A program made the translations under genes and the position numbers. A DNA stretch of 59,021 nucleotides from an uncultured virus (IMG/VR IMGVR_UViG_3300021446_000194) (taxonomy: Varidnaviria; Helvetiavirae; Dividoviricota; Laserviricetes; Halopanivirales): IMG/VR virus record IMGVR_UViG_3300021446_000194. One strand, written 5' to 3'. Under the pieces are notes generated by a model that was given only the letters and a program-made list of their open reading frames with translations, had not been told where the DNA came from and did not search any database. Of this stretch, positions 3,999-42,287 are shown one piece after another (positions within the stretch are counted from its first letter, which is position 1; every line of letters starts with the position of its first letter).

Positions 3999-4120
3999 AG
4001 TTGCCCGCTCTGTGTTTTTGTTTGGAGCGAGCGGGAAGCTCACACCCCGACGTATGCACACGGCTCCCTAAAAGGTTGCCCGTAGGGGTTACACCGATAG
4101 TGAGGCGCGAGCCCACCCGA

Positions 4121-4291: not shown

Positions 4292-4299
4292 GGGTGCGA

Positions 4300-5104: not shown

Positions 5105-5917
5105 TCAGACCAGATCGGGCGCTTTGCTCCCGGGTGCCATGTAGAACGCCACCGGGACGACTTCCGCGTCGCCGTCGTCGTAGACCTTCGCGTCGATGTC
5201 CACAGTAGCGGTGGCGTAGGTGCCCTGCGTGGTCAGGATGTGCGTTCCGGACAGACGCGAGGAGAACAGGCCGTTGACCGGGCCGAAGTCTTCCCCGTCT
5301 ACGTCTGCCAGTTCCGTCGCAGTGACGACCGACTTGCCTTCGCTCAGGTCGATGAAGTCCCCAGTGAAGAACAGGTACTCGTCGGGGTCCAACTGGAGCG
5401 AGTTGCCCGCTGTGTTGGCCCCCTCGTCCACGCCAGCGTCACCGACGACATCCAGCCGGTTGCCAGCGGTGAGGCCGGTCTGGAGGAAGTCGTTGACCTG
5501 CGTGCCCGAGATCTCCGAGTACACTTCCGGGGTAGCGAAAGTGAACAGGATGTCGTCGGTACCCGCACGGGCCACGTCCTTGATCGTGCCACTCGGGGTG
5601 TCGTTGTCGTTCTTGTACTTTGCAGCGAACTTCTGGATGAGGTTCTCTTCTCGGGAGAGACCCAGACCGGGGAACTCGATAGTTCGCTCCGGAGTGATGA
5701 ACTGGGTGAGCCACCCCTCGACCACCGAGTCGATGACGTTTGACTCGGTCAGCGTGGAGGAGCTCCCCGAAACGGAGAACTCGTCCACGGTGTCAGACAG
5801 GGTGGACTGGGGGTCGACCCCAGCCAGCCGACGAAGGCGGTCGGCTTCGTAGAAGGTACTCTGGAATCCAGACGGTAGTGCCTCGACTGCGCCAAGTTCG
5901 GATTCGGTTTGAGCCAT
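5105..5917 (-). CDS. Candidate major capsid protein (single jelly-roll-like C-terminal domain), start MAQTESEL
   Basis: 270 aa; strongly biased codons; beta-strand series LQLDPDEYLFFTG...VDIDAKVYDDGDAEVVPVAFYM; heads the structural transcript. Confidence 0.5.
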   Translation of the reverse strand: MAQTESELGAVEALPSGFQSTFYEADRLRRLAGVDPQSTLSDTVDEFSVSGSSSTLTESNVIDSVVEGWLTQFITPERTIEFPGLGLSREENLIQKFAAKYKNDNDTPSGTIKDVARAGTDDILFTFATPEVYSEISGTQVNDFLQTGLTAGNRLDVVGDAGVDEGANTAGNSLQLDPDEYLFFTGDFIDLSEGKSVVTATELADVDGEDFGPVNGLFSSRLSGTHILTTQGTYATATVDIDAKVYDDGDAEVVPVAFYMAPGSKAPDLV

Positions 5918-9323: not shown

Positions 9324-10001
9324 TTACTCACCTCCACTAAGCACGAAGTACGCAAGACTCGCACTCCCTCCAGCAACAGCGAGTTTTTCCGTCTGGTCGA
9401 GAGAGGCCCAGAACTCACGGATCGAGCCCTCCTCGTCGCCGTTTTCTTCGTCGTCTTCGTCGTCACCATCGTCGTCGTCCTTCTCGTCGTCATCCCCGCC
9501 GCCGTCGTCACCACTACTGTTGTCGTCGCCTCCGTCTTCGTTGCGGTCTTCCGCTGGTAGAACGTCGACGGCCCTCTGCTTACTGCCGAGGGGCTTCTCG
9601 CTTTCTGCACCACGGACACTGACCGTGATGGGGAGCGTCCCGCTCTGTTCAATCGGGCCAACTGACAGGATAAACGTGTCTACACCCGCTCCACCACGCA
9701 CGCACCGGGTTGCTTGTGCGGTCGTTGAGCCCGTCGATGCTTCCACAGTCAGTGAGTACCCACCAACAGCGACTGATGTGATACAATGATCCGGGTCCGT
9801 AGGAAGGATAACCGCAGCATTGTTCTTCACATCAACCTCGATCTCGACTATGTCACCGACGCGAACGAAGTCCGGCAGGGAAGTAGTTTTGATACTAACG
9901 AGATCTTTCTTGGATGCTTCTGTATCAAAGCGTGACTCGGTTGGGTCACGCCCGTTGAACTGCTGATCTTTCCCACGCTGTCGCATTCTGTCCCGAGCCA
10001 T
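9324..10001 (-). CDS. Ig-like domain protein with Asp-rich linker and C-terminal membrane anchor
   Basis: LPDFVRVGDIVEIEVDVKN pattern, poly-D/G linker, hydrophobic C-terminus. Confidence 0.65.
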   Translation of the reverse strand: MARDRMRQRGKDQQFNGRDPTESRFDTEASKKDLVSIKTTSLPDFVRVGDIVEIEVDVKNNAAVILPTDPDHCITSVAVGGYSLTVEASTGSTTAQATRCVRGGAGVDTFILSVGPIEQSGTLPITVSVRGAESEKPLGSKQRAVDVLPAEDRNEDGGDDNSSGDDGGGDDDEKDDDDGDDEDDEENGDEEGSIREFWASLDQTEKLAVAGGSASLAYFVLSGGE

Positions 10002-28320: not shown

Positions 28321-28452
28321 GACGTTAAACGTCTTTTCGTAACTTTACTTTTCCGCGCTAAACAAAGTTGTTTTGGCGTGTTAGTCGCTCTACTCACTGT
28401 TAACCGTGAGAACAGGGTGCGGAAATATGTATTTCCGAAGGACTTAACTACC
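28321..28452 (+). promoter_or_regulatory. AT-rich control region with palindromes and a BRE/TATA-like box
   Basis: GACGTTAAACGTC (28321), CTCAC-N8-GTGAG (28393), GGAAATA-TG-TATTTCC (28421), then GAAGGACTTAAC. Confidence 0.6.
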
Positions 28453-29303
28453 ACCCGCTGCACAGACACATTGAACGCGACGCGAGACGACGCAAAGCGC
28501 GACGCGGCGACGTGGCGCGCTGCGTGGTAGTCGACGACCGGCGCTCGTCGGACGCTCCCGACGACGCTGCCGAGGCCGGACGCGGATACCCGGACCTCGG
28601 CCTGTCAGCGAACGCATGTCGGCGTTGCCGGCCGCTGCGCCGCTGTCGCCTGCACGCTCCGCCCCGCAACCCCATGACGCACGCGGGACGCCTGTGCTCC
28701 GCTGCTGGCGGCCTCACGGTCGCTCTCACGAGGCAGGCGAGCCCATCACGTCACGAACCCACCGACGAGCCGACAAGGCGCGGGCTGACGGGCCGGCGTC
28801 GCCTCACGGCGGCGCGACAAGGCCCGGGCCGACGCGCCGGGCTCCGAGGGATCGAGACAGGCATACGGCGGCTGATGTCGTCCCGTGCCGCGAGTAGAGG
28901 GGAGCGGAGCACAACGCCAAGCCGGCAGGATAACCGCGAGGTGGACCGCCCGGTGTCCGGGTTGTCGGGTTCGATCCCCGGCCGTGACCCTGACGGCGTC
29001 GGCGTTGTCGGCGGGTTTTGGACCACTAACCGCTACCCGGTGGGCACTCTCTCGGCTGCGAGGCCGACGAGCCAACGCCGGAAGACCGCACGACGACGGG
29101 AACGCAACGAGTAGGGCCGGATCGAGAGACCCGACCCGCGGGCCGACGCGAAGCCGTACCCAGAGTGCGACACTGTCCGCTGATTCCTCCGCTGCGGGTC
29201 TCTGACCCAAATGCGGGATCAACTGGTCACACACACCTAAACCGCAACAGTCCGGCCGCTCGAACCGCGGGCCGTTGGGCTGTTGTGGGGGTGTTGTTCG
29301 ATC
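28450..29303 (+). ncRNA. Candidate large structured RNA or long 5' leader
   Basis: No acidic ORF; dense nested inverted repeats; T-loop-like arm at 28965-28981; several UCAC-loop hairpins. Confidence 0.55.
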
Positions 29304-29615
29304 ATGTCTGATACCGACAAAGTCAGCCCGGACGAGCTCCGGGAGCAACTGGAGGACCGCCACGGAGTCGTTGCTGTCGACTGCTGGGAACCCATCGAGG
29401 ACCACAACGAGCGGGTCAGCGACGACTTTAAGCAGTTCCCAATCACCGTGAGGAGCGGGGATAGCGGCACGCCGCTGTTCGCGGAAGTGAGACAGGCTGG
29501 ATGGTTCGTCGCGGGAGCGTACCCGCACGCACACCCGGATAGATCGGGATGCTGCACGACGCTACTGGTCCGCGACGTGCCGCCCCAAGAGACCGTCCCC
29601 ACGGCCGAGGCGTAG
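29304..29615 (+). CDS. Hypothetical cassette-like protein
   Basis: Acidic ORF following a hairpin and GGGGGTG motif. Confidence 0.75.
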   Translation: MSDTDKVSPDELREQLEDRHGVVAVDCWEPIEDHNERVSDDFKQFPITVRSGDSGTPLFAEVRQAGWFVAGAYPHAHPDRSGCCTTLLVRDVPPQETVPTAEA

Positions 29616-29679
29616 CAACCCCGCTGTGCTGGCTCGCGCTGGCACTGCGGCCTTCCCAGCACCATGCTGGGGGTGTGCT

Positions 29680-30129
29680 ATGACTGAAGCCAACCCGCTG
29701 CCGACTGCAAGTCAGGAGGATTGGACCGAAGAGGATCGCGCGCTTGCCGCCACCGGCGACTTGTGGAAGCCCGACGGCGACGACAACCCTGCCGCCACCG
29801 GCAGTAGAGCGACGACAAACGACGGGCGAGTCTGGGATGTCGCTCCGTCGACTGTCAGCGTCGACGACAACCGGGAGGTCCGAATCTCTCCCCCCGACCG
29901 CGACGGCTGGGTCACATGCGAGCCGACACACCCAGCGTCGGGCAAATGGACTCCGAACCCCATGACCACGGTTATGACTGTCCCACGGGACGGTCACGAC
30001 TACGTCGCCGTTTTCAGGCGTCTCACCTGCGGGGCCGGGACGGTCGGGTACCGGCTCCGCTACGTCGGGCCCTACCTGCACTCCGGAGGTGCGTACTCTG
30101 AGGCGTTCCCCGTCGAGGGGGTTTACTGA
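29680..30129 (+). CDS. Hypothetical cassette-like protein
   Basis: ORF bounded by two repeat copies. Confidence 0.75.
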   Translation: MTEANPLPTASQEDWTEEDRALAATGDLWKPDGDDNPAATGSRATTNDGRVWDVAPSTVSVDDNREVRISPPDRDGWVTCEPTHPASGKWTPNPMTTVMTVPRDGHDYVAVFRRLTCGAGTVGYRLRYVGPYLHSGGAYSEAFPVEGVY

Positions 30130-30189
30130 CCGACACGCCGGCTCGTGCCGGCGTTGCGGCCTACCCCGGAACAGCCGGGGGTGTGACCT

Positions 30190-30693
30190 ATGTCCAACGA
30201 CCACGGCCTATCAGTTGGCGATGTAGTACAGAAGCAGAACGCCCAACGGCTCGACGTTATCGCGGTTTCCGACAACGACGGCGCCGTAACGCTCGTGCCC
30301 GAGGGAAAGCGCACTATCGGCTTCGGCGACCCCGAGACGTGGGGCGCTGAAACCGTTGCTGGCTTCATCGAGAACGGCGACATAAAGGTTCTCGATGGCG
30401 ACAACGACGCCGACGAGTTCGGCGGCACCGACGACCTGCCTGGACGCGCCCAAGCCCGTGAGATCGGCACGACGCTGGAGATCCGCACGAGGGAGGCCCA
30501 ACACGGCTATGTTGCAGACTTCGAGCGGGGTTCCGAGTTGGTGGGAGAGATGCTGAACATCTCCCACTCGGCGGCGTCACTCTCGCCCGGCGCAACGCTG
30601 GAGTTCGGCGGAGACCGTCGGAAGCGCGTTACCGTGCTCGATCAGGGAGCGAGCGGGAGCCTGCTTGCTGTCGAGATCGGCGACAGAGACTAA
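30190..30693 (+). CDS. Hypothetical cassette-like protein
   Basis: ORF bounded by two repeat copies. Confidence 0.8.
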   Translation: MSNDHGLSVGDVVQKQNAQRLDVIAVSDNDGAVTLVPEGKRTIGFGDPETWGAETVAGFIENGDIKVLDGDNDADEFGGTDDLPGRAQAREIGTTLEIRTREAQHGYVADFERGSELVGEMLNISHSAASLSPGATLEFGGDRRKRVTVLDQGASGSLLAVEIGDRD

Positions 30694-30756
30694 CCGCCTG
30701 CGGTACCGGCTCACGCCGGCGCTGCGGCCTTCCCAGCACCGCGCTGGGGTGTGACC

Positions 30757-31119
30757 ATGACCGAAGCCACGACGACGGACGACGACGAGGTACAGCCCGA
30801 GGACGTGATCAATGGCTCAAGGCTTGCCCGCGACTGGGAGCCCGAGGACTGGCGGCAGGCATACCGCAACGCCGGCAGTGTCGAGGAGGCTAACGACGTG
30901 GCTCAAGCCTTCAAGCTGCTGGATTCTGGCCGTTGGTGGGACATGTGCCAAGAGGTGCACAAGGTCTTTGGCTGCTCAGATAAATCCGGCCGCGAAGCGT
31001 TCGCGGAGGCCCACCCGCAGATGGTGGAGTGGGCAAGCGTTTGGGGACTCTGCGAGCATATGGCGCGCTTCCCGCGCCACACGGAGGCTAGCGAGGAGCG
31101 GCTAACCTTCCGCGACTAA
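30757..31119 (+). CDS. Hypothetical cassette-like protein
   Basis: ORF bounded by two repeat copies. Confidence 0.8.
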   Translation: MTEATTTDDDEVQPEDVINGSRLARDWEPEDWRQAYRNAGSVEEANDVAQAFKLLDSGRWWDMCQEVHKVFGCSDKSGREAFAEAHPQMVEWASVWGLCEHMARFPRHTEASEERLTFRD

Positions 31120-31183
31120 AAGCGCCGCTGGGCCGCCTCACGGCGGCGCTGCGGCTTCTCCCGGACCGCCCGGGGAGTGTGCC

Positions 31184-31402
31184 ATGAACTCGACAACAGT
31201 CCGCGAGACCGAAGAGTATGGACAGTTTGCACCGTCGGGCTACACAGTCGCCCCGCTCGGTGACAGCTACGTTCGGTTTTTCGGCGGGTTCAGAGTCGAA
31301 CCCTCCCGTCACTGACAGGCCGTCACGCATGACGTGCTCGTAGATCAGGACGGTAGCGTGCAAGTACATATCAACGGAACGCCGCTCGCAGAACTCCCGT
31401 AA
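31184..31402 (+). pseudogene. Cassette-like ORF interrupted by an in-frame TGA at 31313-31315
   Basis: The frame stays open after the TGA to a TAA that overlaps the next repeat copy. Confidence 0.6.
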
Positions 31403-31456
31403 CGCCACCTCACGGCGGCGCTACGGCCTACCCTGGCACCGTGCCGGGGGTGTGAT

Positions 31457-31777
31457 ATGACCACCGAAGCCAACGCCGACGACTTCGCGGCAGAGATGGA
31501 CAGCAACCCGTGCGGCCGCCGTGTCGGCCTCCGAGCAGTCGGGCCCTACGTGCTCGAACGCTACGACGATCTGATTACTGCCCGCCGTCGACGCAAGAAC
31601 GGCGATGAGTTACAGGAGCGGATCGGCGTTTGGGTCAAGGACCCCGACCATTGGCGGACGTACCGCAAAGTCGGATCGTTCAGGGCCGTAGCAGCCAATA
31701 TCGCCAAGATGTGGGACAGGCTGGACGACACCGATGCCGTCGCCGAGTGGGTCGAAGAGTACCCATCCGACATCTAA
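31457..31777 (+). CDS. Hypothetical cassette-like protein
   Basis: ORF bounded by two repeat copies. Confidence 0.8.
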   Translation: MTTEANADDFAAEMDSNPCGRRVGLRAVGPYVLERYDDLITARRRRKNGDELQERIGVWVKDPDHWRTYRKVGSFRAVAANIAKMWDRLDDTDAVAEWVEEYPSDI

Positions 31778-31842
31778 CCGGCCGCGGTGCCGGCTCATGC
31801 CGGCGCTGCGGCGTCCTGGGGACGGTCCCGGGGGTGTGTTCG

Positions 31843-32103
31843 ATGGTACGAGTTCGAGACCTACATTTCCGCCGACGACCCGGCTACTGCGTAGAGTTTG
31901 ATAGATTCGGGCTGTTCGTTCTCTCCGAGCAGCAGCTCGACGCGGTCGCCGAGGCCGTCGACACGATCAAAGCCGAGACCGCCGACGCTAACGAGACTGT
32001 TACCGGCAGCGTCCACGTATCCGGGGCGAACGCCCGGATCGTGTGGGACGATCCGGACCGCGACCCGCTGGGTCCGACCGATGTAACGCCGGAGGCTGTC
32101 TAA
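31843..32103 (+). CDS. Hypothetical cassette-like protein
   Basis: ATG directly after a repeat copy. Confidence 0.75.
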   Translation: MVRVRDLHFRRRPGYCVEFDRFGLFVLSEQQLDAVAEAVDTIKAETADANETVTGSVHVSGANARIVWDDPDRDPLGPTDVTPEAV

Positions 32104-32219
32104 TGTCTCTCTGGTATAACGTCTGTCGGAACTTCCGACGGGGCGACGGGCTCGGCGAAGATCGGCAGGGTGAAACGTGCTGCTCCGAGTGCGGTACGAG
32201 GCTCCGCCCGAGCGGCTGA
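32103..32219 (+). CDS. Tiny Cys-containing protein (38 aa)
   Basis: TAATG coupling; CSECG; ends at the next repeat. Confidence 0.45.
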   Translation: MSLWYNVCRNFRRGDGLGEDRQGETCCSECGTRLRPSG

Positions 32220-32282
32220 AATCCCGCGGGCCGGTTCACGCCGGCGCCGCGGCTTTCCCCCGGAGCGGTCGGGGGTGTGACC

Positions 32283-32591
32283 ATGTCCGATCAAGACACG
32301 ACCGACGACGAGTATAACCGACCCGACGACGGTCCCGCCACGGGACACGCGGCCGTTGGGTTCGTGACCGGCCAACGCTTCCCCGACGGCGAGCGTCCGG
32401 AGGAGGTCCGGATCATCTACGAGCGCGACGGGAGCGAGCACGCGGCCGTTGTTCTCCGAACATCTGGCTCCGTCGAAATCAGCCCTGGCGACTCTGTGCG
32501 GTTCCAGACCGCCCGCACAAACGTAGGGAGCACAACCGACGTTGTGTATATCGACCGGCTGCTCGGGGCCCGCCCCGTTCCCGCCGAGTGA
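32283..32591 (+). CDS. Hypothetical cassette-like protein
   Basis: ORF bounded by two repeat copies. Confidence 0.75.
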   Translation: MSDQDTTDDEYNRPDDGPATGHAAVGFVTGQRFPDGERPEEVRIIYERDGSEHAAVVLRTSGSVEISPGDSVRFQTARTNVGSTTDVVYIDRLLGARPVPAE

Positions 32592-32640
32592 CCCCCCCAC
32601 GGGCTCGCTCGGCTTCTCCCGGCTTTGCCGGGGTGTGACT

Positions 32641-32940
32641 ATGTCAGAGACCGACACCGACACCGACACGGCGACCGTCAGAGAAAAGAAGTTCAACGGG
32701 ACGGCGACGTTCGAGATCGAAACAACGTCAGCCCGGAAGGCTAAGGCTGCCGCCGAACGCTTCTTCCGCGAAAAACATGGTGAACGTCCCACTGAGACGG
32801 TCGTACAGGAACGCGACCACAACTACCACTGCATCCACGATAAAGCCGACAAAAGCGACCATTCGCTTTACGATGTGATAGTCACCGACCACAGTTCGGG
32901 GACTCATGCAGATGTTGAGACCTACGAGTTCGACCAGTAG
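32641..32940 (+). CDS. Hypothetical cassette-like protein
   Basis: ORF bounded by two repeat copies. Confidence 0.75.
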   Translation: MSETDTDTDTATVREKKFNGTATFEIETTSARKAKAAAERFFREKHGERPTETVVQERDHNYHCIHDKADKSDHSLYDVIVTDHSSGTHADVETYEFDQ

Positions 32941-32992
32941 ACCCGCCTCAAAGCGGGCTGCTGCGTACCCGGCACCGCGCCGGGCTGTGACC

Positions 32993-33274
32993 ATGTCCGG
33001 CAAGGCAACTAACAACGGATGGAAAACTGATGATCCGATCTACAACCAATGCGAGTGTGGGCGCCACGTCCGAGGCGACCGCATCTGTGGGTGCGGTCGA
33101 CGGCAGGGAAAGGGACACACCTACATGGCGAATGGGAACACTGACAGGGCAGGCAACTACGCCGTCGTGGCTGGTAACTATCAGTGGGCAAGTGACACGT
33201 CGGCATTTGATACCCCTCCTGGCGTCGTTCGTGCGTCGGTTAAGGCCACCCTCGACGCCTCGGGGCTCCGATAA
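32993..33274 (+). CDS. Small zinc-finger protein
   Basis: CECG...CGCG; ATG after a repeat copy. Confidence 0.6.
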   Translation: MSGKATNNGWKTDDPIYNQCECGRHVRGDRICGCGRRQGKGHTYMANGNTDRAGNYAVVAGNYQWASDTSAFDTPPGVVRASVKATLDASGLR

Positions 33275-33524
33275 TGCCGAGTGTGCCTTTTGCGGCAAGG
33301 TGTACGTTCACTGGACGGTCCGCTGCGTCGACTGTGGCTATCTGCACGTGCAGGAGGAGCACGCATAACTGACGGCGAGGGTCATTCCCTCCCCGTCGCT
33401 TGGGGCCTGACACGCCCCTGGGGGCTGACACGCCCCCCACACCCCCGCAGATCAACGCTTACCGGCGCTGGGCGGTCCCCCCCGCCCCGCCGGCCTTTCC
33501 GGCATCGCGCCGGGGTGTGACAAC

Positions 33525-34100
33525 ATGGACGATAACACCGAGCGAAAGCAAACTCTGAGGACGGGGATGGACCTCGCTCAGCGCAACAAGTACCAAGCTC
33601 GAATCGACCAGCGGCTCAGGGACGCTTTTGAGAACCGCGAGGAAGCGGTCAAGCAGTCCAGAGACCGCTTTGCGAGAGCCATTGAGGAGGGCTGGACAAT
33701 CCGCCACGCCGTCGCCACGTCCGGCGCCCACGGGTGGCAGATCGAAAGTGACGACGATGGCCTCCGGCTGTCGGAAGGTGCGTACCCGGGAGATGTTTCG
33801 TGGTTAGTCTTTGAGAATGGTTGGATTCACCGCACCGGCGCGCGCTGGCTCAAAGACGACGACCTTGCCGCCTGGGTCCGCCGGAAGAAAGATAGTCAGG
33901 AGGCAATCACCGAGCGGCTGCGAGAAAAAGAGCGCGAGGCGTTTGAGGCTGATGACCGTATCCGGTATGCGGTGGACACAACCGGCGAGAAGATGCCGGG
34001 GTGGTGGGTTTTCAGGCCGACTGGTTACACCGGCACTCCTCGGCATGTTGTCGCGTATGCCGCCGGGTACGACGCTCGACAGGGCGGGGAAGAAGAATAA
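33525..34100 (+). CDS. Hypothetical protein
   Basis: ATG after a repeat copy. Confidence 0.8.
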   Translation: MDDNTERKQTLRTGMDLAQRNKYQARIDQRLRDAFENREEAVKQSRDRFARAIEEGWTIRHAVATSGAHGWQIESDDDGLRLSEGAYPGDVSWLVFENGWIHRTGARWLKDDDLAAWVRRKKDSQEAITERLREKEREAFEADDRIRYAVDTTGEKMPGWWVFRPTGYTGTPRHVVAYAAGYDARQGGEEE

Positions 34101-34176
34101 GTTAGAAGAGTGAACCACGTCGACGGGCCGGACCCGTCGGCGTCCTCTCACGGTGCGGTGCCGTGTGTTATTAGCT

Positions 34177-34752
34177 ATGCCAGAATACGGGATCTACCTC
34201 GATGTAGACAGTGACGGCGTGTACCTATCCGCGCCTGACCGCTACACGGGGATAACAGCAGCACAGCACGCGACCTACGTCCTCTCCGAGATCGTGGGCA
34301 GCCGCCACGGGGGAAACGCGCCCTACGCGCGGATGCTCATGTCGGCATCCCAGTGGCTCCACGACGCCAGGCAGTACGACTCCGCCCGGGGGATCGTCTA
34401 CTCGGATGAGGGGAGTGACGAACACCCACCGGCTCGGGGGCAGGTGGCGGACGTGTTCCTGATCCTAGCGGGAGCACACGCTGCCGACACTTTCGGACGG
34501 ACTGGGACAAAAAAGATGGAGGAGGGTGTTTCCTTCGCCAACGATCTGGCCGAACGCCTTGGCGACGAGATCGGGACGACGCCGATCAACCACGGACCAG
34601 CGGTTCAAGAGCCGGAGCGTATACACCACTATAAAGGCCCGTCATCGTTCATGCAGCAGCGGTTCTGTACCGACTGTGGCGGCGAGGCGACGGGTGAGCT
34701 CCCCGAGGGGGGAAAGTGCCCGTTCTGCGAGGAGAGTGGGACGCTGATCTGA
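34177..34752 (+). CDS. Hypothetical protein with C-terminal Zn ribbon
   Basis: CTDC...CPFC. Confidence 0.75.
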   Translation: MPEYGIYLDVDSDGVYLSAPDRYTGITAAQHATYVLSEIVGSRHGGNAPYARMLMSASQWLHDARQYDSARGIVYSDEGSDEHPPARGQVADVFLILAGAHAADTFGRTGTKKMEEGVSFANDLAERLGDEIGTTPINHGPAVQEPERIHHYKGPSSFMQQRFCTDCGGEATGELPEGGKCPFCEESGTLI

Positions 34753-34802
34753 CCACCCGAGGATCACACCTTGGGAGGTTCTATCCGCCACGCGGCGGAG
34801 GT

Positions 34803-35828
34803 ATGACCATGGAATGGAACCCGTCCGCTAAGTACGAGTTGTACCTGCATTGGATAGACGACATCCTCACGGACGAGAAGCGTACCGTTCGTGACGTTTA
34901 CTACGCACTCGAATCCCGGGGCTTCCCGGACGAGTGCGCGGAGCAGGGGTACGACTTCAAGTATCGGTTTGTCAAGAGAGCGGTCAAGAAAGGCAGGAGG
35001 GCGGGGTATATCGACCCGTCGATGATCGTTGACACATCCCGGCGGGCCGTCGAAATCCCCAGCGAGGGGTACGACGACCCAGTGGAGTTCGCCGGGCGAA
35101 TAATGTCGACGGTAGCGAGCGGCTACAATGAGAACTTCTGGCGGGACCAGGACCATTACGTCGAGGTATGGCTCGAAAAGCAGTCGTTGGCGTCGGTGTT
35201 TGCGCCGATCTGCGCCGAACATAACGTCCGACTTGAAGCCACCCGCGGCGACTGGTCCGACAGCAAGGTCTATGAGGCAGCACACCGACTGCTTGACAAG
35301 CTGAACGCGGGCAAGCAGGTGCGCGTGGTCTACTGGGGGGACTTCAACCCCAGCGGGTTCCACGCACCCGTCAGCGTCCAACAGACGCTCAAGCACTACG
35401 GCCTCGATCTGGGGCCGCGGCAGCAGGACGAGCCCCCGTCGCGGTATTTCGACATCTGGCCGCAGAGTGAGCCGTCGTCGTGGAGCGGGCACGAAGGCGC
35501 CGACATCATGTTCGAGCGCGCGGGGCTAAACCTCGAACACATCAAGCGGTACAGTCTGCCTGAAAACCCCAACCCTTCGTCTTCGGACAAGGACCGCCAG
35601 CTACGCGAGCGGTTCCGGGAGCACGTTTCGGAGGGGCGAGACGTGAACGTCGAGCTTAACGCCCTCAAGGAGTTCCACCGCGACGATCTCGAAGCAGAGA
35701 TCAGGAATGGGATAACGCAGTATATCGACACCACGCAGCGCGCGACCACCGAAGAGCGTGTGGGCGAGCGCCAAGAGGCGATTCAGGAGGCGTTCAACGT
35801 GGACAGAGACGCGCTGAGCAGCCTGTAG
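34803..35828 (+). CDS. Topoisomerase VI A/Spo11-like protein (Mini-A type; WHD plus TOPRIM)
   Basis: TVRDVYY (catalytic Tyr context), VEVWLEK, YWGDFNPSG, VELNAL. Confidence 0.8.
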   Translation: MTMEWNPSAKYELYLHWIDDILTDEKRTVRDVYYALESRGFPDECAEQGYDFKYRFVKRAVKKGRRAGYIDPSMIVDTSRRAVEIPSEGYDDPVEFAGRIMSTVASGYNENFWRDQDHYVEVWLEKQSLASVFAPICAEHNVRLEATRGDWSDSKVYEAAHRLLDKLNAGKQVRVVYWGDFNPSGFHAPVSVQQTLKHYGLDLGPRQQDEPPSRYFDIWPQSEPSSWSGHEGADIMFERAGLNLEHIKRYSLPENPNPSSSDKDRQLRERFREHVSEGRDVNVELNALKEFHRDDLEAEIRNGITQYIDTTQRATTEERVGERQEAIQEAFNVDRDALSSL

Positions 35829-36005
35829 ACCGACAGCCAACATCTTCACCAGTGTTGGTGTCTTCGGGGGCAGCGAGCCCCCATTGCGCTGCCACAGGCA
35901 GCCAGCATAGAGTCGTACAAACAGTCCGTCACACCCTCGCGCATCGCCGCTGTTCGCTTATCCGCCAGCGCCTTCACCGGGGCTGGCGGTATTCCCCAAC
36001 TGGGG

Positions 36006-36290
36006 ATGATCCAGATGCCGCAGATAGACCACGACCTTCTCGAAGAACTGGAAGAGGACTACACACCCTCGGCCGCCGCCGAGGCGAACAAGGCCACGCT
36101 GGTCGCTGCGATCCTCGAACGGGCCAGCGTTAGCTACGACGAGAAAGAGTTGGAGAAGACCGACCGGGTTAAGTCCCGACACCTGCGCTCGCTTCTCCAT
36201 GCACTACAGGACGTGGAGGAGCGTTCCGATGGTGGTGAACCCAGCTCGATGTCGACCGCGACGGACAAAAAGGGCCGCCGGCGTCGGTAG
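36006..36290 (+). CDS. Hypothetical protein
   Basis: Acidic helical ORF after a hairpin leader. Confidence 0.7.
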   Translation: MIQMPQIDHDLLEELEEDYTPSAAAEANKATLVAAILERASVSYDEKELEKTDRVKSRHLRSLLHALQDVEERSDGGEPSSMSTATDKKGRRRR

Positions 36291-36295
36291 CAACG

Positions 36296-36481
36296 ATGAT
36301 CGACGCTTCTCTGTGGGTTTACCGCGGCGCGGCGACGATGGCTTTCTGCTACCTCTCCGTGACGACTCTCGTCTTCTCGGTGTATATCGGCCTCGTTGAC
36401 GGAGCGGTCACGGCTTCAGTTGTGTTGGCGTTCATCGCTGCGGCGCTCGCCCTGTTTGGGCTGATCGTTTTGCCGGAGTAG
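36296..36481 (+). CDS. Small membrane protein
   Basis: Two hydrophobic helices. Confidence 0.65.
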   Translation: MIDASLWVYRGAATMAFCYLSVTTLVFSVYIGLVDGAVTASVVLAFIAAALALFGLIVLPE

Positions 36482-36565
36482 CATTTCGAGGCTGGTCAGA
36501 CAGCTTTCGAGGGTTCTGCCCGCGGGCTCACGCGAGGGTTCGCTCGGGCGGAGGTGTGACCAATC

Positions 36566-37996
36566 ATGGCACCCCAGCAGGAGACTACCAAAGCCGACGA
36601 CGAGACGGACAGTACGCTCCGATTTGCCGGCCTCACCCGCTTCGTGGAGGGGCGTGTTCCCGAGGAGGTATTCGGACACGGCTCCTCGATGAAATGGTGG
36701 GCTAAGGAGTGGAACCGTGAGGAAATGAAGGCCGACGAGGACGATAACGTCGACCTGCCGGACAGCGGGTTCAACTCCGTGATCGACCAACTCCCCCGGG
36801 CGACGACGGCGGAGGTCCAATGGGTCCACCCGCGCACGGGCGAGACATACAAGACCGCCAAGCACAACGCCGTTATCGACCCGGACCGCGCCGAACAGAT
36901 CAACGGACCCTTCGGCTCCTACGCCGAGGTGCTCCAGCACTACGCCGATAAGGATCTTACCGACGCGGAGGCCGCGGAGGCCGTCGAGGAAACGGGGTTC
37001 GAGGACGCCGTCGACAAGTACGTGTCGGACGGCGAAACCCGTGGCCGGGCAAAGACAACGAGTCCTGGCGACGACGCCCTCTACCACATCCCTACTGACG
37101 ACTACGAGGTGGTCAACCCGTCAGAGGTGCTCCGACCGCTGGCCGAGGTACTCGGCGATCAGGGGCTCGGTGAAGATGTCTTCGGCGAGGCACGCCTCTA
37201 CCGCGCCGGCGGGAAGGTGTCGCTGGATGTGTTCTTCAACGGGAAGACCGTCGAGTGGCCCGGAAAGGACGACGACCGTAAGCCGGTCGTGGTCGGTATG
37301 CAGATCGACTACGACCACTTTGGCGGGACGAGCGTCAACATCCAGGGCATGGGGATGGACTGGGAGTGTACGAACGCGCTCCGCTCCATCACCGGTACCG
37401 AGACGGTGAAACACGCTGGCGACATCGACAGCCGCGTCGAGTGGAAAGAACTGTACGAGGACCTGCTCGAATCGCTGGACCTGAAGACCGACCAACTCTC
37501 GCAGGTGATCCACGAGGCCAGCAACGAGTTTCTGGACCTCGGCGACCTGCCGGACGATCTGACCGACGTGCTTGACCACCGCGAGGTCGACACGATCTGG
37601 CAGGCGCTCTACAAGGCCGCCGGGCTCCCGGGTTACCTCGCCAAGCACGCAGGGGACAACCTCAGTGCCGAGGCGGGCGACCCCTACGAGCCCTCATGGT
37701 GGGAGATCCACCGCGGAGCCACCTACGCGATCTCGCATTACAGCCGGTCAGAGACGCACGCGGGTAGCAGCATCGACCAGCAGAACCGGACAGCCAACGA
37801 CATGCTGCTCAACCCCGAGCAGATCATCGAGAACGTCGACGTGGCCTACCACGAAAAGCAGGAAGACACCACCCTCTCCGAAGAGGGCGGTGGCGCGGCA
37901 AGCCTCCAGCGCGTGCAGGAAGGGCTCGCCGAGAAGCGCGAGGAGTACGAGGAGCGACAGGACATGATCGAGCAGATTCAGGCCCAGGCCGAGTGA
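36566..37996 (+). CDS. DUF932-like mobile-element protein
   Basis: IPTDDYEVVNP...GGKV...DHFGGTS...CTNAL...KH pattern; strongly biased codons. Confidence 0.55.
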   Translation: MAPQQETTKADDETDSTLRFAGLTRFVEGRVPEEVFGHGSSMKWWAKEWNREEMKADEDDNVDLPDSGFNSVIDQLPRATTAEVQWVHPRTGETYKTAKHNAVIDPDRAEQINGPFGSYAEVLQHYADKDLTDAEAAEAVEETGFEDAVDKYVSDGETRGRAKTTSPGDDALYHIPTDDYEVVNPSEVLRPLAEVLGDQGLGEDVFGEARLYRAGGKVSLDVFFNGKTVEWPGKDDDRKPVVVGMQIDYDHFGGTSVNIQGMGMDWECTNALRSITGTETVKHAGDIDSRVEWKELYEDLLESLDLKTDQLSQVIHEASNEFLDLGDLPDDLTDVLDHREVDTIWQALYKAAGLPGYLAKHAGDNLSAEAGDPYEPSWWEIHRGATYAISHYSRSETHAGSSIDQQNRTANDMLLNPEQIIENVDVAYHEKQEDTTLSEEGGGAASLQRVQEGLAEKREEYEERQDMIEQIQAQAE

Positions 37997-38052
37997 CTGA
38001 ACGGGCCGACAGACCACCAGAGCGACGGTCATTCGTCAGCTCTGGTCATGCG

Positions 38053-38220
38053 ATGCCAGACTCAATTGGCTACCGATGCGACGGCTGTGGTGAACAGTTC
38101 CTCTACAAGAACCACGAGACGAACGCCGCAGTCCTCCGGGCCGTGTGGGACCACATAGATGAAGAACACGGCGGCAAAGAGACCGCCGACACGATCACCC
38201 AACAGACACAGGAAGCATGA
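38053..38220 (+). CDS. Small C2H2-like zinc-finger protein
   Basis: CDGC...H....H. Confidence 0.6.
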   Translation: MPDSIGYRCDGCGEQFLYKNHETNAAVLRAVWDHIDEEHGGKETADTITQQTQEA

Positions 38221-38528
38221 CCTCTCCCGGGGAAATCCCTCGCTCGATGGTCGCCGATGTGATCTCCAAGAGAGCGAACAAACAGGACCACTGCGGGGTT
38301 TGCGGCGGGGAGATAACGGGCAGCATCGGCCTCACCCGGGACCGGGAGTGCGTCGATTGTCGCACCTGCTACACGGTCGTCGGCCACCGCGACGATGGCG
38401 GTCCAGAATACGATGTCGAGATGGACACAACCCCGGTGGCCCGGATCAGACGCAAACTCCGAACGACCGTATGGGAGAGAGCAGTCTACGAATCCATGTC
38501 TGGAGATGATAATGAGACCGGACAGTAG
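38217..38528 (+). CDS. Zinc-ribbon protein
   Basis: CGVC...CVDC. Confidence 0.65.
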   Translation: MTSPGEIPRSMVADVISKRANKQDHCGVCGGEITGSIGLTRDRECVDCRTCYTVVGHRDDGGPEYDVEMDTTPVARIRRKLRTTVWERAVYESMSGDDNETGQ

Positions 38529-38685
38529 TGGGGTTATCTTCGTCCGGTATGGGTGTTGGGACTGCGAGTTCGGTGGTGATTCGCTAAACGGTGTCGGGCT
38601 CGCGTCCCAGCACGCCGAGGCGAACCCCGAACACGAGGTATGGGCTGAGCAGGTCACTAGCATGACGTGGAACGAAGATGGCTAA
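38512..38685 (+). CDS. Small zinc-finger protein
   Basis: CWDC...HA....HEV. Confidence 0.55.
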   Translation: MRPDSSGVIFVRYGCWDCEFGGDSLNGVGLASQHAEANPEHEVWAEQVTSMTWNEDG

Positions 38686-39028
38686 CTCCGACTCCGAAAC
38701 CCGAGTCGGCCACACGAAGGCCGACTCCACCGACACGTACGTCGGACGCGGCGACGGAGGGAAGCATCTCCACACCGCCAACATCCGCAAGCGGGGCTGG
38801 TTAGGTAATCCCTACACTCTGGAAGAGCACAGCCGCGAGGAGTCGATCCAGCAGTTCCGGGACGACTTCGAGCACCGACTCGAACACGACGGCGCATTCC
38901 GCAACGAGGTTCGGAAGCTGGCTGGCGACGTGCTTGGCTGCTGGTGCCAACGGCTCGAAAACGACGGGCCGTCCTGCCACGCCGAGGTGATTGCCGAGCA
39001 CGCCGACCGACTTGCGGAGGAAGCGTAG
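38678..39028 (+). CDS. DUF4326-family protein
   Basis: TYVGR...GWLGNPY...LAGDVLGCWC...CHAEVI. Confidence 0.8.
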   Translation: MANSDSETRVGHTKADSTDTYVGRGDGGKHLHTANIRKRGWLGNPYTLEEHSREESIQQFRDDFEHRLEHDGAFRNEVRKLAGDVLGCWCQRLENDGPSCHAEVIAEHADRLAEEA

Positions 39029-39094
39029 AGGATCGAATACACACTCTGGCGGCGGTCAGACGCCGCCGGGCATTGCGGTGACGGCCAAACCACG

Positions 39095-39640
39095 ATGGAT
39101 TATAACACTATCGCCGAAGACATGAGCGACGGAGAACTGGTAGTGAAAGTAAACGAGATAATCCGCGGCGTGAAAGAGGAGGTGGACAAAGCATACCAGT
39201 ACGCTGCTGCGGTCGATGACGCCGACGGTCTTGCGGATGAGATTCAGGACGCCCAGACCCACGTCCAGCGTGTACAGGATGTGGCGGGGGAGAGATTAGA
39301 GTACGTGGCGAAGAGAATCCACACCAACACGGGGGTGGTAACCACGTACGAGAGTCCGGGGGGAAAGACTGGCCCACAGGATGCAATAGTGGTGGTAGAC
39401 GTAGACCGTGTACAACAGCGAGTGACGTTTACTGTTGGTTTCGAGGACGAAGGACCGGCCCTCAACGCGCGGGACGTGTTGACAATGGGGGTGGCCTACG
39501 TGCAGTCGCACCACCCGAACCGGTCGGTCAGCGCAGGCGATAAGGAGGCCGCGGTTCCGTTCGCCTTCGCAACAGCCAAAGAGTATCTTGAAACGGAAGC
39601 ATTCTGGGACTTTTCCGACATCCATTACCCGTCTATTTGA
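39095..39640 (+). CDS. Hypothetical protein
   Basis: Acidic ORF within the operon. Confidence 0.75.
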   Translation: MDYNTIAEDMSDGELVVKVNEIIRGVKEEVDKAYQYAAAVDDADGLADEIQDAQTHVQRVQDVAGERLEYVAKRIHTNTGVVTTYESPGGKTGPQDAIVVVDVDRVQQRVTFTVGFEDEGPALNARDVLTMGVAYVQSHHPNRSVSAGDKEAAVPFAFATAKEYLETEAFWDFSDIHYPSI

Positions 39641-39693
39641 GTCGCGTAGTGGCGTTCACGCGCCACTCTCGCCTTCCCGAGAGGGGACTAACT

Positions 39694-39984
39694 ATGCAGC
39701 AGGGTGACCCAGTTCTGGTCAAGAACATGGATGGTGAACAGGCCCGAGCCGTGATTGCCGAAATAACCGACAAAGTTGCCGCCGAGGCGACTATCCCGAA
39801 AGGCGACGAAGAAGTGTCCGTCTCCCGCTACTGGGGAGGCAGCGTCGATCCAGACGAGGGCATTGTCGTCGTCCGGTTCCTGAAGACAGTGACACACGAT
39901 AACCGTCCGGCCGGGTACGGAGAAAAAACATACAGCTATCCCGAGTCGAAGGTTGAACCGCAGGACACGGGGCGAGAGGGGTGA
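39694..39984 (+). CDS. Small SH3-like beta-barrel protein
   Basis: GDPVLV...VVVRF...YSYPESKV pattern. Confidence 0.6.
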   Translation: MQQGDPVLVKNMDGEQARAVIAEITDKVAAEATIPKGDEEVSVSRYWGGSVDPDEGIVVVRFLKTVTHDNRPAGYGEKTYSYPESKVEPQDTGREG

Positions 39985-39991
39985 TTTGGCT

Positions 39992-40129
39992 ATGGCAAAC
40001 TGCCCGAACTGTGGGTTCGTTCTCGACACTGAGGAGGACAACGATGCCCTCGCCGCCGACGAGCAGTTCGACTACTTCTGCGCGGCCTGCGGGGAGTTGT
40101 ATGTGGAGGCTGACCTCGACGTAGACTGA
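39992..40129 (+). CDS. Small CPxCG zinc-finger protein (45 aa)
   Basis: CPNCG...CAACG; SD-like GGGGTGA upstream. Confidence 0.6.
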   Translation: MANCPNCGFVLDTEEDNDALAADEQFDYFCAACGELYVEADLDVD

Positions 40130-40141
40130 GTATGTTTAAGT

Positions 40142-40471
40142 ATGACTGAGTATGAGATATTCGAGTGCGACGGCTGCGGCGACAGGCACGGCCACAAGAC
40201 AGAGATGCAAGAGATCCTGCTGATCGCCGAGTCCGGCCACTTCGACGAGCCCGAGACGCTGACCACGCACCTCTGCACCACCTGTACGACGAAAGAGATC
40301 GACAGCGCCCTCGAAAAAGTCGAGGCGTTCGGCGTCGACAGGTTCCGTGGAGAGGTGAAGGCGGCCATCTTGAACGGTGGTGATCTTGTCGGCGTCCCGC
40401 AGATGTACGGTAATGAAACGTTCCGTGATGTGCGCGAGGCGGTGGAGCAGGTCGAACAGCGGTTGATGTAG
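40142..40471 (+). CDS. Zinc-finger protein
   Basis: CDGC...HLCTTC. Confidence 0.7.
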   Translation: MTEYEIFECDGCGDRHGHKTEMQEILLIAESGHFDEPETLTTHLCTTCTTKEIDSALEKVEAFGVDRFRGEVKAAILNGGDLVGVPQMYGNETFRDVREAVEQVEQRLM

Positions 40472-40526
40472 ACTGTACGGGCCGTTGCGGCTGTCAGAAG
40501 CCGCTTCGGCATGAGGTGAAACCTGT

Positions 40527-41087
40527 ATGGCAACACGGCTTGATTGGCCGTCGAGTATCGACCGGACTCCGCCCGAGCAGCGGAAAAGCGGGTCCAAGTT
40601 CAGCGTTATGTTCTCCGTCACTCGCGGTGACTTGACCGACGAGGTGGAACGGCTTGGAGCCGACAAATGGCGAATCGACCACATCACCGGCTCCGGCGGC
40701 GACCCTGGCGTTGTCCTCCGCTTCACCCGGGACGGGACTGACCACGCGGTCGCCTGCGACGGGTACGAGACCAAATCGGCGAATCTCCGGGAGCTGTACC
40801 TCTGGGTAGAAGAGACCCGTATGCGGGAGAAACGGAAGGCAGAGGGGGCGAGCGACGCCTTCGCTGCTGCGCGACTTCCATCTGGGGACGGCCCGAGCGA
40901 GGACGACCCGCTGGCGAACATCGACCCCTACGAGGTGCTCGGCGTGCAGCCCAGCGCCTCCGAGTCCGTCGTAGAGGCTGTTGTCAGGCAGCGCAAAGGC
41001 GAAGCGCATCCGGATAGCGGTGGGAGCCAACTGGAGCTACAGAAGGTGGAGAAGGCTGAAGAGATGATCCTCAACGGCCAGGGATGA
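40527..41087 (+). CDS. J-domain (DnaJ-like) protein
   Basis: DPYEVLGV...AHPDSGGS at the C-terminus. Confidence 0.85.
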   Translation: MATRLDWPSSIDRTPPEQRKSGSKFSVMFSVTRGDLTDEVERLGADKWRIDHITGSGGDPGVVLRFTRDGTDHAVACDGYETKSANLRELYLWVEETRMREKRKAEGASDAFAAARLPSGDGPSEDDPLANIDPYEVLGVQPSASESVVEAVVRQRKGEAHPDSGGSQLELQKVEKAEEMILNGQG

Positions 41088-41299
41088 GCGTCGAGGACCC
41101 ACGCCTGTGCCCCGAGTGCCGCGAACCACGGCAGGGGCTTGTCTGTCAATGTGGGTGCGATCTCCGCGAGGTGGATGTCGTTTACTGCGCGGAGTGTTCA
41201 AAGCCGGCGACGAAAGAAGCGGCTGACCGCCAGACGTGGCAGGGGTCGTCTGTGGCACACGCCTCGAAGAGCGGATACTTCTGTCCAAACTGTCAGTAG
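41084..41299 (+). CDS. Cys-rich zinc-finger protein
   Basis: CPEC, CQC, CAEC and CPNC. Confidence 0.65.
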   Translation: MSVEDPRLCPECREPRQGLVCQCGCDLREVDVVYCAECSKPATKEAADRQTWQGSSVAHASKSGYFCPNCQ

Positions 41300-41348
41300 A
41301 TACTGTCGGAGCGCCTTTCACTTGGCGCCCCGTCACTTGGATTCAGCG

Positions 41349-42287
41349 ATGGCTGATCGGTATGACTATCGGATTGACCGGGATGTGGCCGACACGATCA
41401 AACAGCGAGTGAATGATCCGTCGGTCAACGCGCTTGACTGGGCGTGGCAGTACGTCGCACCGACGATGTCAGAGCGACGCCGCGCCCGGACGGCTACGCT
41501 ACTCTCTTTGGCGTCCGAACCCGACAGGAATGGCGTCCGGGGACGGATTCATGCCTTGTACCCCGGACCGGGAGGAACCGGAAAGACGGTGCTTCGAGAC
41601 TGGGTGAAAAATACCTTCGACTGCGCCTACGGCGTTGGTCCCGGATCGTCGGACACCGGGCTGCGCTACAACGCGAACGTGAACAAACCCGGAAAACTCC
41701 ACATGGCCGACGGGGGAGTGCTCTGTGTTGAGGAGTTCGACAAGTTCGACCGCGACGAATGGGAAGCAACCTACGAGTCCATGTCGGACGGCTACTTCGA
41801 GGTGGATAAAGGCGGCGTCGACGCCGAGATCGACGCCGAGACGCGGATCATCGCGGTGTGCAACGAGACACGGCCGTTTTCCCAACCACTACTCTCCCGA
41901 TTCGACTTCATCGTGGAGATGGACGAGTACGATGCAGCGGAGACCATCACCGTCGGCGAGGACATCACTGACCAGTTCATTTCGGCGTTCATCAAAGACG
42001 AAGACGGTGCCGCCCGGCCGTTCCTGCCGCAATACCTCTCCTACATACAGGGGTTCCGGCCGGGGCTCACGGATGACTTCGCCGGGCAGGTGAAGCAGTG
42101 TCTCCGACGGCTGGTCCACGAGGAGGACATGGTCGGGGACATCCGCGGGAAGGAGGCGTACCTACGTATCGCATACACGGCTGCGAAGCTGGATATGCGG
42201 GACGTAGAGGTGGAGGACTGGGTCCGAGCAGTCGATCTCGTCCATCCAGACATCGACGCCGCGGGGCTCTACTCAGACTTCCTTTGA
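41349..42287 (+). CDS. MCM-family AAA+ ATPase lacking the N-terminal domain
   Basis: RGRIHALYPGPGGTGKT, GKLHMADGGVLCVEEFDK, LLSRFDF, sensor-2 helix IRGKEAYLRIA. Confidence 0.85.
   Translation: MADRYDYRIDRDVADTIKQRVNDPSVNALDWAWQYVAPTMSERRRARTATLLSLASEPDRNGVRGRIHALYPGPGGTGKTVLRDWVKNTFDCAYGVGPGSSDTGLRYNANVNKPGKLHMADGGVLCVEEFDKFDRDEWEATYESMSDGYFEVDKGGVDAEIDAETRIIAVCNETRPFSQPLLSRFDFIVEMDEYDAAETITVGEDITDQFISAFIKDEDGAARPFLPQYLSYIQGFRPGLTDDFAGQVKQCLRRLVHEEDMVGDIRGKEAYLRIAYTAAKLDMRDVEVEDWVRAVDLVHPDIDAAGLYSDFL

Follow-up and report, generated by a model that had tools for sequence, protein, structure and literature searches.

A tandem-hairpin unit between the early genes of an uncultured haloarchaeal virus and its possible role in processing the early transcript

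Introduction

The question of how internal genes are translated in haloarchaea when they overlap no neighbour and are not leaderless is touched by a junction element in the DNA of the uncultured virus IMGVR_UViG_3300021446_000194, a stretch of 59,021 nucleotides that is referred to below, at its full length, as the window. Because the opening 50 bases of the window come back at 58967, it represents a whole circle of 58,966 bp, and it is treated here as an uncultured circular haloarchaeal virus or virus-like element. A GC-rich leader follows its only AT-rich stretch, with a 13-kb one-strand operon behind, and a structured unit recurs at the gene junctions of this operon. An earlier note on this DNA had drawn attention to a hairpin with a UCA loop, found in the leader and throughout the operon, and had proposed a regulon in which an RNA-binding protein reads these loops and the long leader RNA serves as a sponge. 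The UCA hairpin turns out to be the upstream member of a tandem pair of hairpins that together reach from one stop codon to the next start, an arrangement that the note overlooked. This unit may be an RNA-level punctuation mark, used for cutting a long early transcript and protecting its ends, a tentative interpretation to which we give somewhat less than an even chance.

In Haloferax volcanii, termination-reinitiation coupling hardly survives once the gap reaches about 20 nt (PMC10666635) and Shine-Dalgarno (SD) sequences are not used in 5' untranslated region (UTR) translation (PMC3986360). At four loci of cultured haloviruses the genes overlap instead, with gaps of 10 nt or less in 11/26, 25/29, 21/27 and 15/34 junctions. 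The window gaps are 49–66 nt long in the 12 junctions measured and full of stable stems, and they are not ordinary coupled junctions, because coupling fails at about 20 nt. Nor are the genes separate transcription units, as the junctions have no promoters. The internal genes therefore require another route, the gaps being too long for coupling and the SD sequence being unused.

Structure of the junction unit

The unit forms a nine-copy direct repeat at 29.6–33.5 kb (Table 1), and its parts follow in a constant order: stop codon, hairpin 1, a linker of 3–4 nt, hairpin 2, 7–9 nt and AUG. Hairpin 1, which starts at or just behind the stop codon, has up to 14 bp and a loop of the form N-UCR-Y-N, and hairpin 2 is made of a C run, a variable loop and a G run, and covers an SD-like G run whose unpaired probability is 0.2 or less in the core copies. 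The end of the hairpin-1 loop lies 40–43 nt from the AUG in 8/8 core copies, and this distance declines from 40 to 26 nt in the later copies of the window. In the eight core copies, 82% of the hairpin-1 cells and 93% of the hairpin-2 cells are paired, and the stems covary, with 16 cells changed on both sides compared with 7.1 after shuffling (0/500 shuffles as high), counts that are inflated by the relatedness of the copies. A TATA-like word was found in 0/17 junctions (AT content 23–44%) and a T run in 1/17; the unit is, thus, neither a promoter nor a U-tract terminator, and the junctions are U-poor in general.

A covariance model built from the eight core copies recovers two extra full copies, at 33460 (E value 8e-7) and 32582 (3e-5). 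It scores the looser copies weakly: those at 35960 and 28796 have E values of about 0.04, followed by 39643 (0.14), 34752 (1.4), 28708 (2.5), 40480 (3.5) and 41304 (7), and the copies at 36520 and 39047 are absent from its match list.

The sequences quoted in the earlier note all lie where it had placed them, and eight of the quoted UCA-loop copies are real: in the operon, those at 34756–34775, 35962 (UUCACC), 39045–39070, 39648–39667, 40487–40504 and 41311–41328 (the weakest, with a 5-bp stem and an 8-nt loop), and in the leader, those at 28708–28723 and 28796–28815 (pair probabilities of 0.98–1.0 in the whole-leader ensemble). Two others differ from their description. The copy at 36520 has a long stem and the loop GGCUCA, which is not the loop quoted, and a GUCAGA-loop hairpin at 36489–36506 had been overlooked; the third leader copy, 28723–28732, was rejected as a hairpin, its 3-bp stem overlapping the first copy and its bases being unpaired or paired elsewhere in the whole-leader ensemble.

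UCA-loop hairpins are also enriched where the unit would lead one to expect them. With a stem of at least five pairs, at most one G-U, TCA within the loop and a position within 80 nt upstream of a start required, 11/28 operon starts (hand-listed from a table of open reading frames) have such a hairpin compared with 3/52 other genes (taken from a simple gene caller; Fisher p = 3e-4), and 159/2000 random 80-mers meet the same definition. In the late part of the operon, the count is 6/16 starts (shuffle mean 0.63; 0/300 shuffles as high), and the two UCAC tetraloop hairpins of the leader are likewise reached by 0/300 shuffles. TCA is the top loop trinucleotide (11, followed by CCG with 9), though it was picked after the data had been seen. 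Under loose definitions, UCA-loop hairpins are not enriched over the whole genome (75 on the plus strand, 74 on the minus strand), and it is therefore position that matters. The comparison with the opposite strand, proposed as a refutation, says nothing about the strand, as the same hairpins are read there as TGA loops (12/28). The inference that a conserved loop on variable stems reflects recognition fares well: the stems covary, the distance to AUG is fixed and the unit is kept in a relative (L009) whose 476-aa anchor protein is only 56% identical to that of the window. This does point to something that reads the UCA loop, most likely on RNA.

The unit in related loci

The anchor protein is common to the window and its relatives. 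Its closer relatives, with 43–52% identity, are found on 19 metagenome contigs (L009–L027), and more distant ones in cultured haloviruses (26–37% identity) and haloarchaeal plasmids (about 30%). In a tree of 19 anchor sequences (L027 was omitted as partial), the window and L009 form one clade (support 0.98). L009 carries at least 13 copies of the unit, in which hairpin 1 has the loop CUCACC or one close to it and the loop of hairpin 2 is often UUCG; the loop–AUG distance is 40–47 nt in 11/13 listed sites, and the stems covary (26 two-sided changes versus 11.2 after shuffling, 0/500 as high) in a structure that included five pairs between the loop and the tail of the unit. The covariance model of the window finds three of the L009 units (E values of 5e-4 to 5e-3).

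The same stop–hairpin–hairpin–AUG layout is present in all 17 of the further loci (L010–L026), in which the invariant part is hairpin 2, with a GAGA loop on a CCC/GGG stem in 129/149 distinct sites, mostly 7–11 nt before AUG. This GAGA motif was found in 0/10 among eight distant halovirus loci, L009 and one plasmid locus. In the four innermost pairs G-U outnumbers A-C by 24 to 3 (10 versus 3, p 0.09, for the inner three), an excess that favours the sense strand. Counted together, the natural variants of this compact junction element in these viruses number well over one hundred. The content and order of the operon genes are mosaic across the relatives, with four or five different upstream neighbours for some families. 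Matches of a pattern scan of IMG/VR and GTDB were rejected as further copies of the element, being single and scattered and treated as chance; two (L001, L002) read as coding sequence and the contig of another (L074) shares no protein.

In the GAGA clade, one more hairpin recurs between genes, placed before hairpin 2; its internal loop is conserved and its outer stem varies. It is present in L010 (about 1170–1215), L012, L014, L023 (about 9390–9435), L024 and L026. Short tandem repeats, possibly an origin, lie just upstream of the early promoter region in L018 (3032–3190) and L023 (2805–2957), with units of 9–12 and 10–21 nt.

Leaders and an RNase P-like RNA

Non-coding leaders of 1.1–1.2 kb are found in L018, L023 and L026, and the last 0.9 kb of one in L011, with a core common to all four. 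The 3' end of each of these leaders is formed by an RNase P-like RNA about 200 nt long. In the signature of P4, GAGGAA is followed by two bases, then a bulged U and then five more bases; this stretch pairs with the seven bases that come after an ACAGAA farther downstream, and the pairing exists in three compensated (covarying) versions. In its strict form, the signature was found in 4/74 sequences (2.09 Mb, both strands), always on the sense strand, corresponding to 4/4 leaders of the GAGA clade for which leader sequence is available. When the part enclosed by P4 is folded independently, nested helices appear that follow the order P5, P7, a reduced specificity domain and P15. In bacterial RNase P, a GGU in the P15 loop pairs with the 3' CCA of the substrate; this GGU is present in L011 and L018, and L023 and L026 are without it. 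L018 and L023, 97% identical in the anchor, nevertheless carry different versions of the RNA, indicating that the module has been swapped. By its signature and helix order, the leader RNA of these relatives appears RNase P-like; if active, it would be a virus-encoded RNase P ribozyme. No report of a virus-encoded RNase P RNA was found in a search of the archaeal-virus literature that covered few of the subscription papers. Upstream of the RNase P-like part lies a further hairpin-rich conserved core of several hundred bases with many GNRA loops (L023 about 3180–3870 and its counterparts in L011, L018 and L026).

The window leader begins behind a putative TATA box to which the strict TATA pattern has no match; in the relatives, an AT-rich box occupies the corresponding position ahead of the leader. 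Its fold z-score is -2.2 on the plus strand and -0.9 on the minus strand (20 shuffles each), and a bacterial-type scan found no terminator-like site from the leader to the first gene. UCAC words are mildly over-represented (6 versus 2.8; 21/500 shuffles as high), and the tandem unit of the leader is followed by neither an SD-like run nor an AUG. Five early regions contain T-loop hairpins or tRNA-like folds, namely those of the window, L015 (7255–7325), L011 (1190–1240), L025 (2340–2375) and L009 (115–155); that of the window folds locally and has a probability of 0 in the whole-leader ensemble.

A close relative known from translated sequence (P0097) apparently keeps the window leader with its two UCAC hairpins. 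Judging from the amino acids, no codon that spans either UCAC loop has changed, the third quoted copy differs, and two in-stem changes are those expected for G-U to G-C or A-U. This comparison runs through an Arg-rich open frame that crosses the leader (28512–29114, plus strand) and is also open in P0097, with no frameshift over about 170 codons and 73% identity of the translation over 89% of the query. Considered as a possible arginine-rich protein like lambda N, this frame was judged most likely non-coding, because its composition is unlike that of the virus's own proteins, its start codon is not conserved and the substitutions are more radical than a protein would be expected to show. Two weak, post hoc observations concern the motif in front of the starts: a C/A-rich stretch of the leader (29226–29240) is complementary to the pre-start motif GUGUGAC (36/500 shuffles as high), and the L009 leader holds an 8-nt complement of its own pre-start motif (5/500 shuffles as high).

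Proposed function of the unit

With a hairpin at each stop, a second one at a fixed distance from AUG, a loop that marks the lineage and RNA-processing elements in the leaders, cutting and protection is the simplest account of the unit. One long early transcript would run from a putative promoter near 28445 through about 42.3 kb, and the unit would act on this RNA, with a cut at every junction that falls either within the short unpaired linker or immediately after hairpin 2. Once the RNA is cut, hairpin 1 would shield the 3' end of the message of the upstream gene, and the downstream message would begin with hairpin 2 or a very short leader and be translated on its own. The factor that cuts would dock at the invariant loop, which is UCA in the lineage of the window and GAGA in its sister clade. 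In the GAGA clade, this factor could be the virus-encoded RNase P-like RNA, and the candidates in the window are the host RNase P or tRNase Z, a protein, or a different leader RNA. The repeats would serve secondarily as exchange points for early genes. RNase R, apparently the sole exoribonuclease found in H. volcanii at the time, acts poorly on structured RNA (PMC1635327), intergenic stem-loops do a cutting and stabilising job in the cip-cel operon (PMC4423207), and RNase P and tRNase Z of H. volcanii cleave t-elements (PMC4946936). In a more specific version, which is unlikely, the early transcript would be a tRNA-operon-like program cut by a ribozyme or guide borne on its leader. One clade would use a minimal RNase P RNA that recognises GAGA, and the clade of the window another, uncatalogued leader RNA that recognises UCA.

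Several observations weigh against processing of this kind. The junction units are not tRNA-like, with no T-loop, tRNA-like shape or adjacent CCA found in them. The sense strand of the window holds no RNase P-like signature, strict or relaxed, and its leader has no similarity to those of the relatives in nhmmer. The RNase P-like RNAs are not scored by Rfam (eight loci at the gathering score, the L023 and L018 leaders at an E value of 10), the models of which do not score pseudoknots. The strand bias of the hairpins is not significant in the window (G-U 15, A-C 7, p 0.13) or in L009 (12 and 7, p 0.36), an automated count that extends the stems into A/C-rich spacers reverses the bias of the GAGA clade (22 versus 56), and whole-segment folding energies do not favour the sense strand in most relatives. 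The related loci are not independent samples, and the burial of the SD-like run in hairpin 2 fits a translational switch equally well.

Alternative explanations

Such a switch would be a structured element for internal translation initiation or coupling, acting without any cutting, in which the hairpins join stop and start or gate the SD-like run. The fixed loop–AUG distance, the position of hairpin 1 at or just behind the stop codon and the pairing of the SD-like run all suit it, and it seems rather unlikely but a serious contender. In a pseudoknot version, the UCA loop, which like the 16S anti-SD is complementary to the GUGA behind hairpin 2, would pair with that GUGA, and the terminating ribosome would open the pseudoknot; in L009, the corresponding five-pair loop–tail helix is possible in 96.9% of cells, with one two-sided change. 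In the window, however, this helix is possible in 59% of cells (with the register fixed by the alignment), and the loops pair their own tails no better than those of other copies (39 pairs versus a mean of 42.1; 1987/2000 permutations as high). The GAGA clade lacks such a complement, and SD sequences are unused in H. volcanii 5' UTRs (PMC3986360). It is distinctly unlikely that the units are instead DNA-level cassette boundaries, similar to T4 PeSLs or integron attC sites and kept mainly for the shuffling of early genes, although recombination between units surely happens: operon content and order are mosaic, different genes share terminal codons adjoining the repeat, the first 20 nt of the junction track the upstream gene family (identity 0.70 versus a background of 0.45), a tyrosine integrase is encoded in the window and L009, and the unit at 39643 is a hybrid. 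Compensatory changes keep the structure while identity is lost, which implies that recombination is not what selection keeps, and G-U pairs on the sense strand and GNRA/UUCG loops in the relatives, together with the lack of a promoter of the kind found in PeSLs, also argue against cassette boundaries. No gene-skipping joint was found in the virus's own contigs, a weak argument given that contigs drop rare variants; the joints 28844/31125 and 31155/30700 belong to a single different contig that appears in two runs, and their sides are 31 letters long.

The sponge proposed in the earlier note, in which the leader would titrate or load a protein reading the UCA loops, in the manner of CsrA/CsrB or lambda N/boxB, has some observations in its favour: the loop stays the same on stems that vary; two UCAC hairpins form in the leader with high probability and are apparently kept in the close relative (from translated sequence only); the partial leader of L009 has an AUCACG-loop hairpin; and GAGA words are over-represented in the leaders of the GAGA clade (6 to 35 of 500 shuffles as high). 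We consider it to have little likelihood. The leader has two such loops rather than three, compared with about 16 target copies most likely on the same transcript, and for this reason it cannot titrate them. CsrB-type RNAs have about 5–20 sites, whereas two hairpin sites are present in 833 nt here. No RNA-binding candidate was recognised among the scanned operon proteins (Pfam/PHROG); the 476-aa anchor protein matches no known fold, and it is also encoded by viruses and plasmids that lack the element. In most relatives the layout is retained, but the invariant loop, there GAGA, sits in the second hairpin, so that the loop changes both hairpin and sequence between clades. Very little likelihood is left for an aid to antitermination, in which U-poor hairpins would fill the untranslated gaps so that the termination factor could not load, with a put-RNA-like leader. 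The archaeal termination factor is FttA/aCPSF1, and the U-poor junctions and the long leader ahead of a 13-kb one-strand operon would be consistent with such a role; overlapping genes would, however, be a simpler route, and the fixed AUG distance and lineage-specific loops would be left unexplained.

Comparison with known systems

No description of the tandem unit was found in the archaeal-virus literature, as represented by main texts outside subscription papers. The T4-type PeSL cassettes (PMC2839356) and the PeSL-like motif of the halovirus HGTV-1 (PMC3950731) resemble the unit in that a stem-loop is repeated before many small non-core genes in a hypervariable region, with probable shuffling. 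However, PeSLs combine promoter and terminator (PMC2839356), whereas the window unit has no TATA or U-tract, and the HGTV-1 motif consists of a TATA-like region and one inverted repeat (PMC3950731), as opposed to two hairpins, an invariant loop and a fixed AUG spacing. The class I and II repeats of HF2, also from a haloarchaeal virus, are about 60 bp long and intergenic among early genes (PMC8707807); they are AT-rich promoters, and the paper uses neither the word hairpin nor the word stem, whereas the window units are GC-rich tandem hairpins. The processing and stabilisation stem-loops of cip-cel, like those proposed here, are intergenic, mark cuts and set the level of each gene (PMC4423207). 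They depend on bacterial enzymes and are single, non-repeated hairpins, unlike the repeated tandem unit of an archaeal virus, for which cutting is a proposal.

A conserved intergenic stem-loop directly behind the stop codon is present in the window, and by analogy the unit probably works like processing or stabilisation stem-loops. In the early region of phage T7, RNase III sites are intergenic stem-loops that mark cuts in polycistronic RNA, and a processing signal at the window junctions would be their archaeal-virus counterpart and could serve directly as a building block for expressing several genes together in Haloferax. The t-elements of haloarchaea are small folded signals for tRNA-processing enzymes (PMC4946936), and T-loop hairpins occur in the viral leaders; t-elements have a T-arm and an acceptor-like stem, whereas the junction units have no T-loop.

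Minimal forms of RNase P RNA exist, such as the archaeal type T. The leader RNA of the relatives shares with them the flanking regions, a bulged-U P4 with covariation, the order of P5, P7 and P15 and a much reduced specificity domain; it differs in being virus-borne, located inside a 1.1-kb leader, without an Rfam score and absent from the window. The lambda N/boxB system has a GNRA-like boxB loop with boxA near the promoter. The window loops are N-UCA-Y-N, one at each junction, and although a conserved loop on variable stems is common to CsrA/CsrB, N/boxB and the window unit, the window has sites at every junction and no multi-site sponge, boxA-like partner or identified protein.

Features of the window and its genome context

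Table 1. Positions of the features discussed in the text (window unless a relative is named)
Feature	Position	Strand	Basis or remark
Putative TATA box of early transcript	28441–28450	+	TTAA core ending the only AT-rich stretch; inferred from sequence
GC-rich structured leader, about 830 nt	28470–29303	+	Fold z-score; start inferred
Leader UCAC-loop hairpin 1	28708–28723	+	Pair probabilities 0.99–1.0
Leader UCAC-loop hairpin 2 (28796–28815) and second hairpin (28821–28843)	28796–28843	+	Model E 0.043
T-loop-capped hairpin, tRNA T-arm-like, possible t-element	28955–28995 (loop 28970–28976)	+	Local fold
Core unit, loop UCGC	29619–29682	+	Direct repeat, alignment, covariance model
Core unit, loop UCGU	30128–30192	+	Direct repeat, alignment, covariance model
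Core unit, loop UCAC	30696–30759	+	Direct repeat, alignment, covariance model
Core unit, loop UCAC	31123–31186	+	Direct repeat, alignment, covariance model
Core unit, loop UCAC	31395–31459	+	Direct repeat, alignment, covariance model
Core unit, loop UCAU	31780–31845	+	Direct repeat, alignment, covariance model
Core unit, loop UCAC closed by U-G	32221–32285	+	Direct repeat, alignment, covariance model
Unit, loop CCCAC, no UCA	32582–32643	+	Covariance model, E 2.6e-5
Core unit, loop CUCAAA	32933–32995	+	Alignment, covariance model
Unit, C-rich loop, no UCA	33460–33527	+	Covariance model, E 7.9e-7
Tandem hairpins, no UCA loop	34115–34179	+	Covariance model, E 1.6
Loose unit, loop AUCACA, 40 nt from AUG, before topoisomerase-like gene (PHROG 6247)	34752–34811	+	
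Loose unit, loop UUCACC	35960–36017	+	
Loose unit: GUCAGA-loop hairpin, then long GGCUCA-loop hairpin over SD-like run; before the 476-aa gene	36489–36568	+	
Anchor protein, 476 aa	36566–37996	+	Common to window and relatives
Loose unit, loop GUCAGA	39045–39097	+	
Hybrid unit: UUCACG-loop hairpin 1 and the relatives' CCC-GAGA-GGG hairpin 2 (39676)	39643–39696	+	Single site of GAGA-type hairpin 2 in the window, behind a UCA hairpin
Loose unit, loop GUCAGA	40480–40529	+	
Weakest copy, loop UUUCACUU, before MCM-like gene (Pfam MCM)	41304–41351	+	Model E 7; may be chance
RNase P-like RNA, L023	about 3880–4125	sense	3' end of early leader
RNase P-like RNA, L026	about 3235–3460	sense	3' end of early leader
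RNase P-like RNA, L018	about 4205–4410	sense	3' end of early leader
RNase P-like RNA, L011	about 670–880	sense	3' end of early leader

The predicted proteins of the window are acidic, and those that could be named by Pfam or PHROG are an MCM-like ATPase, a tyrosine integrase, a methyltransferase, a topoisomerase-like protein, a subtilase and one PHROG virion protein. No tRNA gene was found in the window. Rfam gave no match at the gathering score in the window, its leader included, or in eight relatives, and matches at chance level only at relaxed E values (up to 5–10) in the window and the relatives' leaders. The DNA of the early region has no match among cultured phages, and for the L023 leader there is neither an Rfam match nor a DNA match in cultured phages. 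The anchor gene has no relative in GTDB genomes, and its protein gives a confident structure model, yet no known fold was matched.

The DNA of the window is present in four halite-metagenome runs of one study. Another, more abundant contig (runs X2 and X3) matches the leader at 28771–28844 and the repeats at 30700 and 31125; it is another UCA-type virus of the same habitat.

A conserved 270-aa protein (5105–5917, minus strand) with a beta-sandwich model is a capsid candidate. Its top structural match is the SPV1 capsid protein (Z 5.4, root-mean-square deviation 3.8 over 137 residues), but this match is tied with unrelated folds and so does not identify the type of virus. A 2153-aa acidic protein is encoded at 20866–27327, and its first 550 residues resemble two tandem PCNA units, with residues 301–422 matching H. 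volcanii PCNA at an E value of 2e-16 and residues 19–263 matching more weakly. Within the operon, the gene behind the unit at 31123 (31184–31402) has a TGA at codon 44, after which the frame runs on for 28 codons to a stop adjoining the next unit, and the longer gap before the unit at 33460 (33377–33460) contains additional hairpins and a short direct repeat.

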